Below, piece by piece: positions 36,393-44,202 of a DNA stretch of 64,000 nt (within the stretch, counting starts at the first letter, position 1; every line of letters starts with the position of its first letter). The notes under the pieces were generated by a model. The model was given only the letters and a program-made list of their open reading frames with translations, did no database searches and had not been told where the DNA came from. This DNA comes from a virus. The DNA is taken from positions 13,353-77,352 of IMG/VR virus record IMGVR_UViG_3300005563_000033. One strand, 5' to 3'. The translations under genes and the position numbers were made by a program.

Positions 36393-37795
36393 TGGCCAAA
36401 CGTTTTCATATACCTACTGTTGGTAATGTGGCTGCCGGAGCCGTGGTGTTTAATCCGCACTATGACAACATGGCCCGTCAAATGCAGATGCACCAACTGG
36501 CCAAAGATCAGGCATTGGGTCAATACTACAGCAAGCTGGAAAATAGCATCAATCCGGCAGGCGTTAGGCAACAGGATATGGACGGATGGCAGAAAAAACT
36601 ACAGGATTGGCAAGCGTTTGCTATCGAAAATAGACAAGCTCTTATTAATCCCAACCTAGACAGAGGGCAGGCCATGCGTAGGTTCGGAGCCATGCACCAA
36701 GACCTTTTGGGAGATATTCAAAAATCAAAGGCGGCCGCTGCTACAGAAAGGGCCGTTCAGCCGCTTTTTCTTGACCCGAAAAGAAGGGCTTTAACTACCA
36801 ATAAAGACCTAGAATACGGACACCGGCTAAGTGCTTCTATTTATGATCCACAGCATTACAAAGACGATGGAGTCACACCCATAGCACCGGAAGATTTTTC
36901 TTTTAACGCGGCCCCTTATGATGTAAACAAACAGAGAACTACCAATATTGAATTAACGAGGGGATTGAAGCAAGAAAAAACATATGGTAAGGGGAAGGTA
37001 AATGAAGCAGAACTAAAAGATTATGTGCCTTTTACGTTAAAGCATTCGCCCCAAAACCTACGGGTTATTGGTGATCGGATGGCATCTTTGTATGGGAGTG
37101 GGGATCATGGAGACAAGTCCATCCAACAGTATTATGACAACTTCCCTGTAGACGCCGCCGCTCATGAGCAATTGGATAAAGCCTATCGTTCGGTCTATCC
37201 AGAAGATAAAGACGGCATTGGAACGGACCCCAAAAAATTGGCTATGGCCCATGCTATCCAATTAAACTCCCAAGAAACACAAGGGACAGAGATAAAAGGC
37301 TGGTCTCGACCACCACAAGGCCGTCAATTGAGTCAAACCAAGCAAGCACAACAGGATATGGCTAACTGGATAAATGGATTCTCAACAGCCATAAAGAACG
37401 GGGATGAGGGAGAAATGAACCGGTACGGGGACCTTTTATATGGCGGGAAAGGGCAGAGCAAGTATCAAGGATTAGAGAAAGGGCCGGTTGAAACTGGTAA
37501 TCCACCCGGGCTACACCTAATAGAAAATATTAAGCCAGGGGTTAGTATTATCCATCAGGATCAGGTTTTCAACCCCACTAAGGGTATTTATGAACCGCAG
37601 ACCTTACGAGAACAATTAGACCCGAACGACCCGGCACTGGCAGATAAACTAGGGAGAATTTATCAAATGCATATGGGAAGTTCTTCCCCGATGAAGAATG
37701 TTCTTTTGAAAAGCGCCGTCAATCAACCGCCGCCCCCTAGCACGAAACCCGCTCCCGTAACACCCGAAAAAGACCCATTAGGACTATTTAAATAA
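36392..37795 (+). CDS. internal virion (ejection) protein
   Basis: 467 aa helical protein in the ejection block. Confidence 0.55.
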   Translation: MAKRFHIPTVGNVAAGAVVFNPHYDNMARQMQMHQLAKDQALGQYYSKLENSINPAGVRQQDMDGWQKKLQDWQAFAIENRQALINPNLDRGQAMRRFGAMHQDLLGDIQKSKAAAATERAVQPLFLDPKRRALTTNKDLEYGHRLSASIYDPQHYKDDGVTPIAPEDFSFNAAPYDVNKQRTTNIELTRGLKQEKTYGKGKVNEAELKDYVPFTLKHSPQNLRVIGDRMASLYGSGDHGDKSIQQYYDNFPVDAAAHEQLDKAYRSVYPEDKDGIGTDPKKLAMAHAIQLNSQETQGTEIKGWSRPPQGRQLSQTKQAQQDMANWINGFSTAIKNGDEGEMNRYGDLLYGGKGQSKYQGLEKGPVETGNPPGLHLIENIKPGVSIIHQDQVFNPTKGIYEPQTLREQLDPNDPALADKLGRIYQMHMGSSSPMKNVLLKSAVNQPPPPSTKPAPVTPEKDPLGLFK

Positions 37796-40700
37796 TGCCT
37801 GTAAATAAATACGATATACCAACCTTTGCTTCTCGAATAAAAGAGAAATACCCCCAATATAAGGATGTTAATGATACAACGTTAACTAAGGCTATCGTAG
37901 ACAAGCATCCAGAATATAGAGAGGCGGTTGACTTGTCTGGACTCGACAAACAGACTTCGCCCGTCGATCAAGGTATTGACAAAACCACGAACAAGGTTAA
38001 CCAATCTATCCAATTCAATGGGACTTTCCAGCCGGATTTAGAGGGTGAAAAGAACGGCGTTTATACCAATGACCCCGATTACCAGAAGCAAAAGGCCGAC
38101 TTCGTAAGCAAGATCATGACGGATCAACAAGGGCGACTACTTTATCCCGAACAGGATACCAAGGGGAACTGGGTAAACTATTATACCAAAGAGCCTATTG
38201 TAAACTTTGATCCACACGAAATGAGGGGGAAAATACTGCAAGTTCCCCATGAATATCTCCCGGCAACAGGTGGTAAAAAGTTCATCACCCCCGTTTATAA
38301 TCAAAAGACAGGAAGTTACGACTTCCCGGATGTGCAAACACCAGATGTGCCGCATCAAGAAACGCTACCAGAAGCAACCGTTTATGGAGGTAAAAAAGGA
38401 AATGGAGAATCTCCTGAATTACAAGGGCTCTCACCTGAAGTAAATTCTATACTTGATGAATCCGGCAAACAGGGGGGGCAATTTTCGCAGATTCTAAAAA
38501 AGAACCCATCATTAGCGCAAGATATAGACAAAACGCTGAAAAAATACGGCGAACCTTATGTCCAATCCCTTAAAACAGGTAGTGAAGCGATGAGCAATGT
38601 CCTTCAAAAAACTGTAGAGGATAAGTTTGATCTGAATAAACCATTGCCACAAGACGTTGACCCGGCTATCTTAAATGGGCATTTGAATGTCTTAAATAAC
38701 TTTGAGAAAAACAGGAAACAATTTGAGGATACGCAGAAAGAACTACAAAGACAGGCAGATTTAATAGCCGACAAAGCAAAAAGGACCGGGCAGCCGATTG
38801 CTCAACAGGATGTAGATATATTGAATCAAAAATCTGCTAAAAATACAGCCAATTGGAATGAATATACCAAGGCAGTTAAATATGCGCAGAACTTTGTAGA
38901 ACAACCGGCTGTAAAAAACTATTTGGATGAATTTAAAAAACGGCAATCCGGCCTTCAATTATTGGATGAAGTTCGGCAAAGAACCTTCCCAAGTGATATA
39001 AACAAGGAAATAAAACAAGATGAATACGACCGAAAAGCCATTGAGGGGAATCTAAATGCCTGGGATTACGCGAAAACATTCATGGGTAAGGCCGGTGCTG
39101 GTATTTCTAATATAGGGGAATCTGTTTTAAAAGCCGCTCCTAGCGTAGTTACAGGCGGCGCACTAAGATGGTCTCCGGAAGGGGAAGCCAAGATAGAAAG
39201 TCTTAATAATGGGGCACAACAATTTTTATCAGCCAATCTCCCGTCTATTTCCCAAGAAGCATTACAAGAAATGGACAAGCGGGGAATGGGGCATTTGATT
39301 GATGATATAAGCTCTACCTTGGGAGGATTTGCGCCTTATATTATTCCGGGCGCAGCAGGAGAAGGGTTAGGGGCTAAAGCAGCTACGTTTGCGACTGCCT
39401 TAGCAGAAAGTGTTCCTACGGTTCGAAAAGAGGCCGAAAAAGCTGGCTTAACCGGAGCAGCTTACAATACCTTCATTACGGCCAAGCCTTTGATTAATGC
39501 GGCCTTTATGACCTTACTGCCCAATGTGAAATTTGCCAAAGGATTCGATAATGATCTAGCTAAATCTATTGTAAATGGGGAATTTAATAGCCCGAAACGA
39601 TTCTTGTTGAATATGGCATCCAAAGCATTGAAAGACCCTAGCGACATTGCCCACTTGCAGGCTATGTTATCCGGAACCGAAATAGGAAACAATTTGGTCA
39701 ATCAAATTACCAATGCCATCCAAAAGGGTCAGGATATTGACAGAGGCATTAGCAGAAAAGAAGGACTACCCGTTGACTATTCGAATATAATCAATCCCAG
39801 ACAGACGGCAGTTATGGCATTGGCTGGTAAAGTGCTGGAAACAATCCCGACCCTTAAAAATGCTATAGGAGATCGGATAGCCGGAAAAGATATTGCCGAA
39901 ACGTACAACCATATTCAAAGTAATATAGTCGAACTAGCTGCCCATAACTTAGATGGCGTAAGCAAGCAAGTGGACGCCTTAGTGAAGAAAGACCCCGGTA
40001 ATATATATGCGCAACACCTCAAAAATACGTTACAAGATTTTGCTTATGCCAAAGCGCATATGCCGGAAGGATTAAATGAGGATCAGCAAGCGGCTATCTT
40101 TTCACTTCAGCAAGAAACTTCCAAGGCACAACGGCAACTATCAACTGCTGACCCCATGTATCAACCTCACCTGCAAAAAATGGTAGAGGAATACAATAAA
40201 CAAATTGGAGATATCATAAAGAATCCTAATAAAGCTATCGACTATTTAAAAGATTCTCATAAAGATTTGCAGGAACAAATTTTATCACCTCAAACAGAAC
40301 AAAATGGCAAAGAAACCGAAGCCAATGCCCAAGCCGAAGGGGTATTAAGCCAACCAGAAGGCGAAGCTAAGGAAGTAGCTGCAAAATCGCCTTCTTATCT
40401 TCTTTCCAGACATGCGGATACAAAAAAAGACGAAGAGGGGAAAGTGAGCGGACCGAACCAGCATCCATTGTCCGAGATGGGTAAAAAAGATGCCGACGAC
40501 TTGGCGACTGAAGTGCAAATGCAAGCAGATAAAACCGGCATTCCTATTACTAAAATCGTTCACTCCGGGTTAGAGAGATCAGCGGAAACAGCCAATAGAG
40601 TGGCAAACAGGGTAAAGGCTCGCACTGTGAGTGATCCTGATTTAAACACATGGGCTAATGGAGATTTCGACAATATTTCAGACCAAGAGTGGAAGGATGT

Positions 40701-43700
40701 ACAAGCATGGTATGGAGAGCATCCTGACGAAGTAGTTTACGATGGGCCTATTGAAAAATTCAAAGGGTGGAAATTGGATGAATCCTTAAATCAATATGCC
40801 AACAGAACAATTGGAGCGCATGCTAAATACGAAGGCGAACCGGCCAGTACCCTATTAATCGACCATAGCAATAACATGATGGTCATGGATGCTTATCGTA
40901 AAAATGGTGGCAAATGGGATAAAAAGGCTATCCAATATTATCTGAATGCCGAAAAGCCGGAACCGGCATCCTTAGTGAAAGGAGAAAAGCCAAAGATCAC
41001 CATATCGACACCAAATATTGTTAACGTAAAATTGAAAGAAAATCCAATTATTGACTTAAATAATGAAAACCATGTATCTAGTGTTATAAAAACACAATGG
41101 GATGCCGTAAATGAAGGTAAGCTATTGGATAATGAGGGAAGTTCTATACAAGGGCCAAATAACGGCATCGCATCTAATGGGCTTGAAAATTTGACAGATA
41201 AAACATGGGGACACGGATCGGATAGGTTGACTGTAAAAGACAGTCTAAAAGCATTACAGAGTTTGATGTCAGGTGGTAAATTCACAGGGTGGTTTGGGAA
41301 AATAAAAGAACCGGAAGGCGGGATGAATGTTCGTGATTATGGGGCTAAATTTGTAGTGGCTACGGATGATGTAGAAGCCATACATGGAGAGAAAGGAACA
41401 GGTAAGTTAAATCCTAAAGAAGTTGAGATAATATTGAATGATCAATTATCTCCTTTTGGCCAATCGCTAAAAAATGAGTACCCTGAATTTACTATTAAAG
41501 ATTATAATGGGAAAGAATTTAAACAAATAAAACCAAAAGAAAATGTATCAGTCGGACAAACAGCGCCGCTGGGCACACACGAAAACGGGGACGGAGGCAC
41601 TGGGAGGACCAGCGAAAGTAGCGGAGTGGGACCAAGCCAGCAAGGGGAAGGACCTGCCGGAAACGGCCCCAAAAAAGAAGAAGATACGGGTCAAAAAGAA
41701 AAGCCAGTAAGCGACGAACTGCCTTTCATTGAAGAAGAAGGAGACAATGAGTTTACCAGCACCAAAAATGAAGTAACCAAGCAGAAAGTAGAAGACTCTG
41801 GACTCAGGCCAGCAATGGAAGAAGCCGCTAGGGATTTTGGTAGTGTGTGGAAAGATGCCCAAAAGAAACTAAGTAAGGGTTTTGACATTGAAGGACTACT
41901 GAAGGGATTAGCCAAAAAGCCAAGGGCTGTGACTGACCTTGAAAACGCTATGATCCTTTTTCATCAAAACGTAAAAGAGGCGCAATTGGATGCCGCTAAT
42001 AAGGAATTGGATCAGGCCAGAAAAGATGGCGACCGGGATAAATGGAATGAAGCCTATGGAACGAGAGCAAGATTGTTAGACGACTTGCAAGATATTTATG
42101 ACGTAGATAAGTCTATCGGTCGTGAAACGGCTAGAGGTTTGAATGCGCGGAAAATGATGGCAGACCGTAGGTTTTCGTTGGTGAATATGCAAATGGAGAA
42201 GCGGGCGGCAGGCGGCGGTGAACCATTAACCGAAAAACAAACGGAAGAGGTTCAAAAACAATATGAGGCTATAAAACAGGCTAAAGAGGCTCTTGATGCA
42301 AGAGTATCTGAATTGGAAAAAGAGAATGTCAGATTGAAGGCAGAAAAATCCGTTCAGGGCCAACGGGGAACAGGCGGTCGTACGAAGAAAACAAAAGAGC
42401 AATACGCTCAGGACAGGAAAGATATTGTCCAAAAAATGAGGGATGATCTACTTAAAGCGGCCAAAGGCGGAGAAGGTTTAACCTCATCCATTCCCTTGGC
42501 GGCCCAATTGAAGGCCATTGCTCCGCACGTAAAAAAATTAGTCGAAAGTTTCATAGAGCAGGGTATTGATAAACTGGAAGATATTACCAAGGGGATTCAT
42601 GATCTTTTAAGTCCTTCCATTCCTGAGTTAGAAGAAAGGCATATTCATGACCTGATTGCCGGTGAATTCAATGAGCCCAAACCTAAATCCGGCACACCTT
42701 CAAAGGCACAACAGATAAAAGAAGAGGCTAAGGTACAAAAGTATAGAGCAACCGATCCAGTATTAATGAAAGCTCAGGCCGAATATGAAAAAGCAAAAGA
42801 AACATTCTTACAAAATATAAAGAAGGATCAACTTAAGGCCAGAACCGGACTTCAAAAGATACAGGATGCTTTCCTTAAATATGAACGCTTTGCAAAGCTA
42901 TCCAACCCTATTACCCTTGGCAAACTGTCAATGGCGGCGCTCACTAGACTATCCACCACTCCCCTAGAAGAAGGCGTAGGCGCTGTTTATTCTAAATTGC
43001 TGCCAGGATTAGCCGCCAAAGCTCCGGGCGAAGCTGGCGCTAATGTAAAGGCATTGGCTAAAGGGTATAAAGCAGCTTTCATGAGAGGGTTGGATGATGC
43101 GGCAACCGTTGTAAAAGGTGGTAAAACAGATATAGAAGCCGTCTACGGAAAGAAGGGATATTTACCCCCCGAAGCCATAGATTTCTTCGGACAACTTCAC
43201 AGTGCTATTAAAGCCCCGGTGAAAAGGTTTGCCTTTGAGCGGTCTTTCGAAAAGAGAATGGCCAATAATATTAAGAATGGGACGCCTATTGACGGAATGG
43301 TCGAGGCGCGTATTGCAGTGGAAGCCTATAAAGACGCCCAACGATCTATATTCATGCAAGATAATGCCGTATCTCGCGGGTGGTCGATGTTGATAAATGG
43401 GCTGGAAAGAACGGATACGCCGGGCGGCAAAGAATTGGCAACGGCTATGCAGTGGCTAATCCCGTTTGTGAAAGTGCCTACCAATATCGTAGGAGAGACG
43501 GTATCGCATGTAGCCGGACCTGAAATAGCATTGGCTAAAGTGCTTCATGCCGGATTGACGAAAGGGCTTAAAAATTTGTCACAAGATGAAGCAGAAATGA
43601 TCTTACGTAACCTTAAAAAAGGAACCATAGGACACGGAGCATTGATGTTGGGTTATTTGAATCCACAAGCATTTGGAGGGTATTACCAAAAGTATGAAAA

Positions 43701-44202
43701 ACGAGACCCGGAAGATGTAAAATTCGGAGCGGCAAAACTTTTTGGAGTGAAAATACCTGCTTGGATGCTAGAAGCTCCTATACTCCAGACTATGCAATTG
43801 GGGGCAACCGTTAGACGTGTTAAAGACACAATGGTAAAGGGCCAGCCCAAAGGAATAGGAGAAGGGATGTGGGCTGGTGGGCTTGGGTTATTGGAACATG
43901 AACCCTTAATAGATGAGCCAGTAAGATTAGGCGAAATGTTGGGTAAGAGCAATGAAAGGCAGTACTTCATGGGTGAATTAGCCAAAAGCACGTTGGTTCC
44001 CGCTGCGGCTGATTATGCGGCAAAGGTGAGTGATCCGCTGGATACAAGACCAGTGGGAGAAAGATTAATGGACCCTGAAAACAAAAGAAAGCCGACTACT
44101 ATACCAGAACATATTGAAAGTGCCATACCGGGATTGCGTGAAAATGTAGAAGAAAAAAAACCAGTACCGCACAAACAAAGACAACATAAACCAGCTAGTT
44201 GA
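37795..44202 (+). CDS. giant internal virion/ejection (polyvalent) protein with histidine-phosphatase domain
   Basis: 2135 aa; N-terminal F...IK.KYPQY.D..D..L; RHA..S.LERS.ETA..DH module; C-terminal PFVKVPTNI region. Confidence 0.75.
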   Translation: MPVNKYDIPTFASRIKEKYPQYKDVNDTTLTKAIVDKHPEYREAVDLSGLDKQTSPVDQGIDKTTNKVNQSIQFNGTFQPDLEGEKNGVYTNDPDYQKQKADFVSKIMTDQQGRLLYPEQDTKGNWVNYYTKEPIVNFDPHEMRGKILQVPHEYLPATGGKKFITPVYNQKTGSYDFPDVQTPDVPHQETLPEATVYGGKKGNGESPELQGLSPEVNSILDESGKQGGQFSQILKKNPSLAQDIDKTLKKYGEPYVQSLKTGSEAMSNVLQKTVEDKFDLNKPLPQDVDPAILNGHLNVLNNFEKNRKQFEDTQKELQRQADLIADKAKRTGQPIAQQDVDILNQKSAKNTANWNEYTKAVKYAQNFVEQPAVKNYLDEFKKRQSGLQLLDEVRQRTFPSDINKEIKQDEYDRKAIEGNLNAWDYAKTFMGKAGAGISNIGESVLKAAPSVVTGGALRWSPEGEAKIESLNNGAQQFLSANLPSISQEALQEMDKRGMGHLIDDISSTLGGFAPYIIPGAAGEGLGAKAATFATALAESVPTVRKEAEKAGLTGAAYNTFITAKPLINAAFMTLLPNVKFAKGFDNDLAKSIVNGEFNSPKRFLLNMASKALKDPSDIAHLQAMLSGTEIGNNLVNQITNAIQKGQDIDRGISRKEGLPVDYSNIINPRQTAVMALAGKVLETIPTLKNAIGDRIAGKDIAETYNHIQSNIVELAAHNLDGVSKQVDALVKKDPGNIYAQHLKNTLQDFAYAKAHMPEGLNEDQQAAIFSLQQETSKAQRQLSTADPMYQPHLQKMVEEYNKQIGDIIKNPNKAIDYLKDSHKDLQEQILSPQTEQNGKETEANAQAEGVLSQPEGEAKEVAAKSPSYLLSRHADTKKDEEGKVSGPNQHPLSEMGKKDADDLATEVQMQADKTGIPITKIVHSGLERSAETANRVANRVKARTVSDPDLNTWANGDFDNISDQEWKDVQAWYGEHPDEVVYDGPIEKFKGWKLDESLNQYANRTIGAHAKYEGEPASTLLIDHSNNMMVMDAYRKNGGKWDKKAIQYYLNAEKPEPASLVKGEKPKITISTPNIVNVKLKENPIIDLNNENHVSSVIKTQWDAVNEGKLLDNEGSSIQGPNNGIASNGLENLTDKTWGHGSDRLTVKDSLKALQSLMSGGKFTGWFGKIKEPEGGMNVRDYGAKFVVATDDVEAIHGEKGTGKLNPKEVEIILNDQLSPFGQSLKNEYPEFTIKDYNGKEFKQIKPKENVSVGQTAPLGTHENGDGGTGRTSESSGVGPSQQGEGPAGNGPKKEEDTGQKEKPVSDELPFIEEEGDNEFTSTKNEVTKQKVEDSGLRPAMEEAARDFGSVWKDAQKKLSKGFDIEGLLKGLAKKPRAVTDLENAMILFHQNVKEAQLDAANKELDQARKDGDRDKWNEAYGTRARLLDDLQDIYDVDKSIGRETARGLNARKMMADRRFSLVNMQMEKRAAGGGEPLTEKQTEEVQKQYEAIKQAKEALDARVSELEKENVRLKAEKSVQGQRGTGGRTKKTKEQYAQDRKDIVQKMRDDLLKAAKGGEGLTSSIPLAAQLKAIAPHVKKLVESFIEQGIDKLEDITKGIHDLLSPSIPELEERHIHDLIAGEFNEPKPKSGTPSKAQQIKEEAKVQKYRATDPVLMKAQAEYEKAKETFLQNIKKDQLKARTGLQKIQDAFLKYERFAKLSNPITLGKLSMAALTRLSTTPLEEGVGAVYSKLLPGLAAKAPGEAGANVKALAKGYKAAFMRGLDDAATVVKGGKTDIEAVYGKKGYLPPEAIDFFGQLHSAIKAPVKRFAFERSFEKRMANNIKNGTPIDGMVEARIAVEAYKDAQRSIFMQDNAVSRGWSMLINGLERTDTPGGKELATAMQWLIPFVKVPTNIVGETVSHVAGPEIALAKVLHAGLTKGLKNLSQDEAEMILRNLKKGTIGHGALMLGYLNPQAFGGYYQKYEKRDPEDVKFGAAKLFGVKIPAWMLEAPILQTMQLGATVRRVKDTMVKGQPKGIGEGMWAGGLGLLEHEPLIDEPVRLGEMLGKSNERQYFMGELAKSTLVPAAADYAAKVSDPLDTRPVGERLMDPENKRKPTTIPEHIESAIPGLRENVEEKKPVPHKQRQHKPAS
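41543..41710 (+). CDS. nested small basic protein in the +1 frame of the giant gene
   Basis: MYQSDKQRRWAHTKTGTEALGGPAKVAEWDQASKGKDLPETAPKKKKIRVKKKSQ; A-rich start context. Confidence 0.6.
   Translation: MYQSDKQRRWAHTKTGTEALGGPAKVAEWDQASKGKDLPETAPKKKKIRVKKKSQ

Follow-up and report, generated by a model that had tools for sequence, protein, structure and literature searches.

The stretch of viral DNA analysed here, referred to as the window, is 64,000 nt long and covers positions 13353-77352 of the 77,352 bp IMG/VR virus record IMGVR_UViG_3300005563_000033. Within it, the gene for a giant protein of 2135 amino acids (aa) contains a complete small open reading frame (ORF) of 55 aa on the same strand, which is opened by an ATG, closed by a TAA and placed in the +1 frame of the giant ORF ((41543-37795) mod 3 = 1). 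The data make it very probable that this is a true dual-coding stretch, in which a small phage gene lies inside the gene for a giant virion protein and the host frame laid over it forms a linker. Both frames are open across the whole of the overlap, in the window and at 15 other nested loci. An earlier note, made without database searches, had proposed a real dual-coding gene at this site, and comparison with relatives supports the proposal for both frames. Its description also held good: the limits and frame of the ORF, the A-rich context of the start and the peptide were as it had given them, and the host-frame peptide that it had called a low-complexity Gly/Ser/Glu linker is rich in Gly, Ser, Glu, Thr and Pro. 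The region 41200-42000 is matched exactly, with no differences or indels, by Logan contigs from two rhizosphere metagenome runs, which may be the source samples, and an indel introduced by assembly is therefore unlikely.

The length of the ORF alone is unremarkable, and it is homology that takes it beyond chance. The resemblance to free-standing small phage proteins that the earlier note had pointed out was borne out by an abundance of free homologues. A word-indexed search of 5.8 billion sequences gave 14 called proteins of 54-80 aa with 58-87% identity (best E = 1.6e-17), and an exhaustive HMMER search of 1.84 billion representatives gave 247 matches at E <= 1e-3. A scan for the family returned 80 loci in IMG/VR. 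In the alignment of the family (A1) 20 invariant columns are separated by variable positions and the basic tails diverge, which is the pattern of a protein family, and the window copy retains all 20 of the invariant residues. These data indicate that the nested peptide is a member of a large, widespread and unnamed family of small phage proteins of about 45-60 aa. Its motifs are MPYxS, WAHT, ALGGP, EWD, SKG and LPE, followed by a Lys-rich tail.

Selection on the two frames was measured as ω (the dN/dS ratio of non-synonymous to synonymous change) by the method of Nei and Gojobori on a core of 40-41 codons. In pairs of nested copies the small-frame ω was 0.06-0.32, whereas the host-frame ω was 1.4-3.6. 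The host-frame ω was likewise high (1.6-3.8) in free-standing controls, for which the small-frame dS was mostly saturated and the two estimable pairs gave a small-frame ω of 0.15-0.18. The fair test lies in pairs that inherited the host gene from a common ancestor and diverged after nesting, for which differences at the host codon positions (h1/h2/h3) were counted per 20 codons. Between loci L010 and L030 the counts were about 3/2/12 in the host flanks and 7/5/3 and 7/2/2 in the overlap. Between L002 and L004 they were 4/1/1 and 5/2/1 in the overlap and about 3/1/10 in the downstream flank. In a third pair (L069 and L073) all four of the differences in the overlap fall on third positions of the small frame, which are the first codon positions of the host frame. 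Because the differences in these pairs shift only inside the overlap, the codon periodicity changes over to the small frame precisely along the length of the nested gene. Taken together, the substitution patterns place the purifying selection on the small frame, with the host frame as a passenger that has been shaped into a linker. The two comparative checks proposed at the outset, conservation of the +1 frame and a frame-specific dN/dS, thus both came out in favour of the small gene; the +1 frame is kept in the orthologous loci L002-L004 and in unrelated giant genes.

The host frame has nevertheless left a mark on the small gene, and this is seen at the third positions. T occupies 14 of 630 third positions (2%) in nested copies and 335 of 2016 (17%) in free copies (Fisher 1e-26), whereas the figures for G are 347/630 (55%) and 704/2016 (35%) (Fisher 5e-19). 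The same holds for phages whose flanks have 30-45% GC, with T at 1.8% in nested and 29% in free copies and G at 51% and 22%, respectively. Gly accounts for 25% of the host-frame peptide of the nested copies, Gln for 12%, Glu for 11% and Ala for 10%; Cys, Phe, Trp, Tyr and stops are absent. Read in the -1 frame, the free copies contain 2.2 stops per 42 codons, and the residues FWYILMC make up 16%, as against no stops and 4.6% in the nested copies. In the window, T makes up 7.1% of the nested stretch as against 21.5% of the giant gene as a whole, the local GC content peaks at 63% within a gene of roughly 42% GC, and the AT skew reaches 0.73. The GC spike and the T-poor island are explained by the recoding of third positions, which keeps the host frame free of stops and hydrophilic. 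Horizontal transfer is not needed as a cause of the spike, since nested copies are recoded at third positions in all GC classes.

The nested gene also appears to have its own initiation signal. Its ATG is preceded by 15 A in 20 nt (of the 148 internal ATGs in the giant gene, none has more), and the region from -25 to +25 has a minimum free energy of 0.0 kcal/mol, within the top 1.4% of internal ATGs (mean folding energies were -7.2 for internal ATGs and -3.5 for real gene starts). Motifs resembling a Shine-Dalgarno (SD) site are present at only 3 of the 31 gene starts in the window, and the leaders are A/T-rich. According to work on Flavobacterium johnsoniae (PMC6847099), initiation in Bacteroidetes relies on low structure and on an A at -3. 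The start of the nested gene matches these determinants, because its leader is unstructured and has an A at -3. We infer that the window phage infects a member of the Bacteroidota, which the rare SD motifs and A-rich leaders would fit. In all five of the nested copies that come from phages of at least 50% GC, a GGAGG-like motif is found 7-13 nt upstream of the start, inside the host coding sequence. Nested copies keep the ATG before a Pro-Tyr/Phe motif, although in the window the ATG is not followed by Pro and in L080 the start is GTG, with an ATG one codon upstream.

Members of the family are found free-standing, as in-frame parts of larger proteins and nested. The gene is free-standing in most of the IMG/VR loci, and the other frames around the free copies are short. 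Large terminase subunits are the most frequent neighbours of free copies, and portal, major head and tail proteins are found as well. The free copy often lies directly after the large terminase gene or just before the portal gene (L007, L009, L053, L056, L060 and others), and in L063 it follows the major head gene. Many of the library matches are internal copies that lie in frame within proteins of 300-1000 aa, where the motif is preceded by Lys and not by Met and where NUDIX, VTC and DUF6321 domains accompany it. In four such proteins of 500-1000 aa (P0070, P0101, P0093 and P0037) the in-frame domain is of roughly 45 aa, and HExxH-like motifs are present.

The nested arrangement was found in 12 of the 80 loci of the scan and in the window. 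With L002-L004, which were fetched separately, this gives 16 loci with 15 distinct copies (the window, L002-L004, L010, L017, L030, L044, L061, L068, L069, L073, L074, L077, L080 and L082). In all 16 the host frame is the -1 frame of the small gene, an ATG or GTG start is kept and a stop follows at 45-84 aa; the position of the nested gene within its host ranges from aa 51 to aa 1250. This constancy of frame does not come from the -1 frame being open by nature: of 48 distinct free copies, stops are missing from the -1 frame in 10 and from the +1 frame in 17, so that it is the +1 frame that is open more often. A further locus (L083:2367-2540) has a copy with a TTG start, the 3' part of which shares about 100 nt with the start of a -1 frame ORF of 444 aa, and this looks like an intermediate architecture.

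The earlier note had described the small gene as overprinted on the giant one, and in this respect the direction has to be reversed. By the usual criterion of wider distribution, the small frame is to be taken as the older one and the linker as the frame that was overlaid; the small gene is widespread, and it is the linker of the giant gene that is new. We picture the stretch as follows. Ribosomes on the mRNA of the giant gene would read the 168 bases as a flexible linker, rich in Gly, Ser and Glu, between two modules, while others would initiate at the internal ATG and produce the small protein on its own. The amino-acid constraint lies on the small frame, whose third positions avoid T and favour G and so keep the host frame open. 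As to origin, the simplest course would be a fusion of the modules on either side of a small gene, with the gene left between them, or the transfer of a cassette from one giant gene to another by recombination.

The host genes of the nested copies are diverse. Their GC1/GC2/GC3 patterns (GC content at the three codon positions) are those of normal coding sequence in the host frame on both sides of the nested gene, with GC3 running from 0.19 (L068) to 0.90 (L017), and the host phages and genes span 33-70% GC. By BLASTP the hosts form at least six unrelated groups: the window, L002, L003, L004, L010 and L030, which have modules in common in a mosaic arrangement; L061 with L080; L069, L073 and L074; and L017, L044, L068 and L077/L082, each of which stands alone. 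The domains recognised in these hosts are His_Phos_1 (the window and L010), ddrB-ParB (L069), GNAT with a weak ART-PolyVal (L068) and DUF7178 (L044).

The orthologues of the window giant gene are those of L002-L004, which are 55-72% identical to it downstream; in each of them a nested ORF occupies the corresponding site. The nested copies of these three belong to a shorter WAFA subfamily, whereas that of the window is of the long WAHT type, and the WAFA subfamily has called small-protein homologues of its own (E down to 1e-13). Different subfamilies at the same orthologous site show replacement in place. L005 (3001-3700) shares with the window the domain upstream of the nested gene (58% identity), and the similarity ends at the last residue ahead of the nested start; beyond this point the two are unrelated, and L005 has no nested gene. 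Since L005 diverges right at the nested start, the nested gene marks a junction between mosaic modules, and the host-frame linker would thus join two such modules. The nested genes of L068 and of L069, L073 and L074 form one clade (Shimodaira-Hasegawa-like approximate likelihood-ratio test support 82, below the star threshold of 95), but the host protein of L068 has no BLASTP similarity to those of the other three. This suggests that the flanks have been exchanged around a nested gene that was retained. The features of the window that bear on the analysis are listed in Table 1.

Table 1. Features of the window discussed in the text (positions are those of the window)
Feature	Position	Strand	Basis or remarks
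Host gene of the 2135 aa giant protein, in the virion module	37795..44202	+	ORF; terminase, portal and virion structural genes upstream; orthologues; periodicity of the flanks
His_Phos_1 (histidine phosphatase) domain of the host protein, aa 869-1017	40399..40845	+	E = 9.9e-13; score 48.6 bits (cutoff 21.7)
Candidate translation-initiation region of the nested gene	41518..41542	+	A-rich, unstructured leader; A at -3; no Shine-Dalgarno site
Host-frame linker rich in Gly, Ser, Glu, Thr and Pro, host aa about 1250-1305	41542..41709	+	Translated peptide; composition at the nested loci; point of divergence of L005
Nested small gene, 55 aa (P0001)	41543..41710	+	ORF call; homologues; purifying selection; predicted AF2 fold
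A_AAA_AAG heptamer in the frame of the small gene	41671..41677	+	A -1 shift would enter the host frame; rejected as a frameshift site

The giant protein of the window is a candidate for a packaged and injected multidomain protein. The histidine phosphatase domain is the only one that Pfam recognises in it, and it could be an injected enzyme; the related giant protein of L010 likewise has a His_Phos_1 domain. A search of the giant protein against the sequences of the PDB gave no match. A second ORF of the +1 frame, which begins with ATG and is longer than the nested one (64 aa, 38249..38443), is present in the same gene. Neither its start nor its peptide is conserved in the orthologue of L002, and this ORF is probably due to chance.

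How the small gene came to be nested can be explained in more than one way. The earlier note had suggested that giant proteins grow linkers by reading through captured genes out of frame. The out-of-frame linker does recur, and that part of the suggestion stands; capture, however, is only one of the possible origins, the insertion of a cassette or the loss of frame by a domain being others. It is possible, and a good deal less than probable, that the nested copy is real but was once an in-frame domain that compensating indels moved out of frame with the gain of a new ATG, or that it is a recombining cassette, and this alternative touches the origin only. The in-frame internal copies described above, with their Lys before the motif and their NUDIX, VTC and DUF6321 partners, are consistent with this alternative, as is the occurrence of WAHT and WAFA subfamilies at one orthologous site. 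Additionally, the nesting frame is -1 in 16 of 16 loci despite the greater openness of free copies in +1, which fits a single origin followed by cassette exchange. Against this, no locus was found with an in-frame form at the orthologous site of a nested host, and the nested copies fall into at least five sequence subfamilies, each of which has free members too. The flanks of the free copies have no homology to the host modules, an ancestor of the form 'gene A - small gene - gene B' was not found, and neither route can be traced. In a tree of the small protein, which is based on 46 columns and is poorly resolved, the nested state needs nine changes, of which the well-supported branches force at least four. 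The routes that come into consideration are thus repeated capture by read-through, one ancient nesting with subsequent exchange of cassettes, and loss of frame by an in-frame domain.

The remaining alternatives deny that a separate small protein is made. The ORF might be a decaying relic or a chance ORF, open merely through its poverty in T and at present neither expressed nor selected. Such a reading would fit the loss of Pro2 from the window copy and the unremarkable length of the ORF, since the +1 frame of the giant gene is open for 50 codons or more at three places. It is made very improbable by homology to E = 1e-17, by an ω of 0.06-0.32 with saturated dS in pairs nested by descent, by starts and stops that are intact in 16 of 16 loci, by a flip in periodicity that is confined to the overlap and by SD sites that are kept within the host coding sequence.

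A shade less plausible again is the production of the small protein only within the giant one by programmed frameshifting, either through entry by a +1 shift and exit by a -1 shift or through a -1 shift at the A_AAA_AAG heptamer that would fuse it to the C-terminal 830 aa. The heptamer of the window is a classical one, and versions of the domain do occur in frame elsewhere. However, neither the orthologues in L002 and L004 nor most of the nested copies have this heptamer, and we have rejected it as the site of a programmed -1 frameshift because it is not conserved among relatives. In-frame slippery heptamers lie at scattered positions and are not enriched among the nested copies (7 of 14, as against 23 of 58 for the free ones), and the conserved ATG, the SD sites and the stops of the nested genes point to separate initiation and termination. 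Finally, a conserved nucleic-acid element (an RNA structure, recombination site or packaging signal) in place of a second protein would account for an island of nucleotide similarity at a mosaic junction between otherwise unrelated giant genes, but is scarcely credible in view of the three-base periodicity in the small frame, the amino acids kept through synonymous change, the lack of predicted structure in the start region and the use of the same sequence as ordinary free-standing or in-frame coding sequence elsewhere.

A number of observations weigh against dual coding by a small gene of this family, or limit how far it can be taken. The window copy lacks Pro2, which is nearly invariant (at least 90% of members), so that this particular copy could be impaired. 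No RNA run with the stretch was listed, and the case for translation of both frames is comparative. Neither the window protein nor the relatives tested gave a match in Pfam, PHROGs or the PDB sequences, a Foldseek search of the small protein against BFVD and the PDB gave no informative fold, and tblastn with two members of the family gave no match in the GenBank phage collection. Loci entered the nested set by virtue of a long host frame without stops, and this amounts to an ascertainment step. With its few columns, the tree leaves the count of separate nesting events uncertain. As regards Pro2 itself, its loss (at 41543-41548) looks like a deletion of 3 nt that left both frames intact, and the nested copies of the orthologues keep the residue.

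Other searches were of limited help. A blastn search of the region against the GenBank phage collection returned nothing usable, and in a search of prokaryote genomes only three contigs of metagenome-assembled genomes had matches, none of which revealed a host. The Atlas search gave clusters annotated 'hypothetical protein' and a weak lead to DUF3008 (0.86). DUF3008 is like the present family in being small (about 50-60 aa), in having an MP.KS start and a basic tail and in being found in viruses and bacteria. However, Pfam fails to confirm the relationship and the resemblance is a lead only: the hidden Markov model of DUF3008 (PF11450) matched neither the window protein nor 61 relatives nor 10 divergent members, none of which reached E = 1 against Pfam.

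AlphaFold2 (AF2), with an alignment of 61 sequences, confidently predicts that the small protein is a three-helix bundle at residues 5-33 (helices 5-11, 14-20 and 23-33). The predicted local distance difference test (pLDDT) score of this model has a mean of 84; it stands at about 90 in the core and drops to 65-68 in the basic tail. We tentatively propose, as one possibility, that the protein has an accessory role associated with packaging or with the virion, such as the binding of nucleic acid or the docking of cargo proteins. This role is favoured because of the compact helical domain, the basic tail, the adjacency to terminase and portal genes and the fusion to, or nesting within, effector-like giant proteins. 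More speculative, and in our judgement rather unlikely, is the idea that the engulfing of conserved intervening genes out of frame is a general means, used again and again, of building and reshuffling giant injected phage proteins. The small gene would then be a portable junction cassette, in which the conserved bases give homology for the swapping of modules between giant genes that are otherwise unrelated, the -1 frame offers a ready-made linker and the product is a possible partner in packaging or delivery.

If the dual-coding reading is correct, this is a gene overlap of a new variety, in that an older small gene has been overlaid by a giant ORF and is read there as a linker, and it gives a concrete route by which giant phage proteins could join modules and yet keep the gene that lies between them. 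It is not a single oddity, as the arrangement recurs in phages of 33% to 70% GC and in giant genes that are mutually unrelated. A T-poor, G-rich island together with a flip in periodicity within a long gene could reveal other nested genes that gene callers skip. The analysis also draws attention to an unnamed family of small proteins, common among uncultured phages, whose genes are often neighbours of those for terminase and portal proteins.

Three known systems invite comparison. Summer and co-workers are reported to have described, in 2007, Rz/Rz1 spanin genes of phage lambda and its relatives that are embedded, overlapped or separated. The likeness lies in a complete small gene in the +1 frame within a larger phage gene of the same strand, which is nested or separate depending on the phage. 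In contrast, Rz1 is a lipoprotein that works with Rz, whereas the 55 aa product of the window has neither a Cys nor a signal sequence, and in the present case the hosts are mutually unrelated, the overlapped part of the host is only a linker and the small gene is clearly older, with free and in-frame forms. An embedded spanin of the Rz1 type was rejected, as the product has no Cys and no hydrophobic N-terminus.

The polyvalent proteins of phages and conjugative elements combine disparate domains in proteins that are packaged and injected (PMC5512222; Iyer et al., 2017). The nested hosts resemble them in being giant multidomain proteins, encoded among virion genes, with disparate enzymatic domains. 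Membership of this class is not established for the window protein, which has one recognised domain only, and a term search of PMC5512222 suggests that out-of-frame nested genes do not feature in it.

In overprinting, the ancestral frame is widely distributed and the younger frame is biased in composition and probably disordered (PMC8227390; PMC3494269). The nested loci share with it the use of one DNA stretch in two frames, of which one is old and widespread and the other younger, biased and probably disordered. In classical overprinting, however, a new small protein is born within an existing gene, whereas here the extension or fusion of a giant ORF has overlaid a small gene that was already there. 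The new frame is in this case a linker and not a new protein, and the arrangement recurs in many unrelated hosts.

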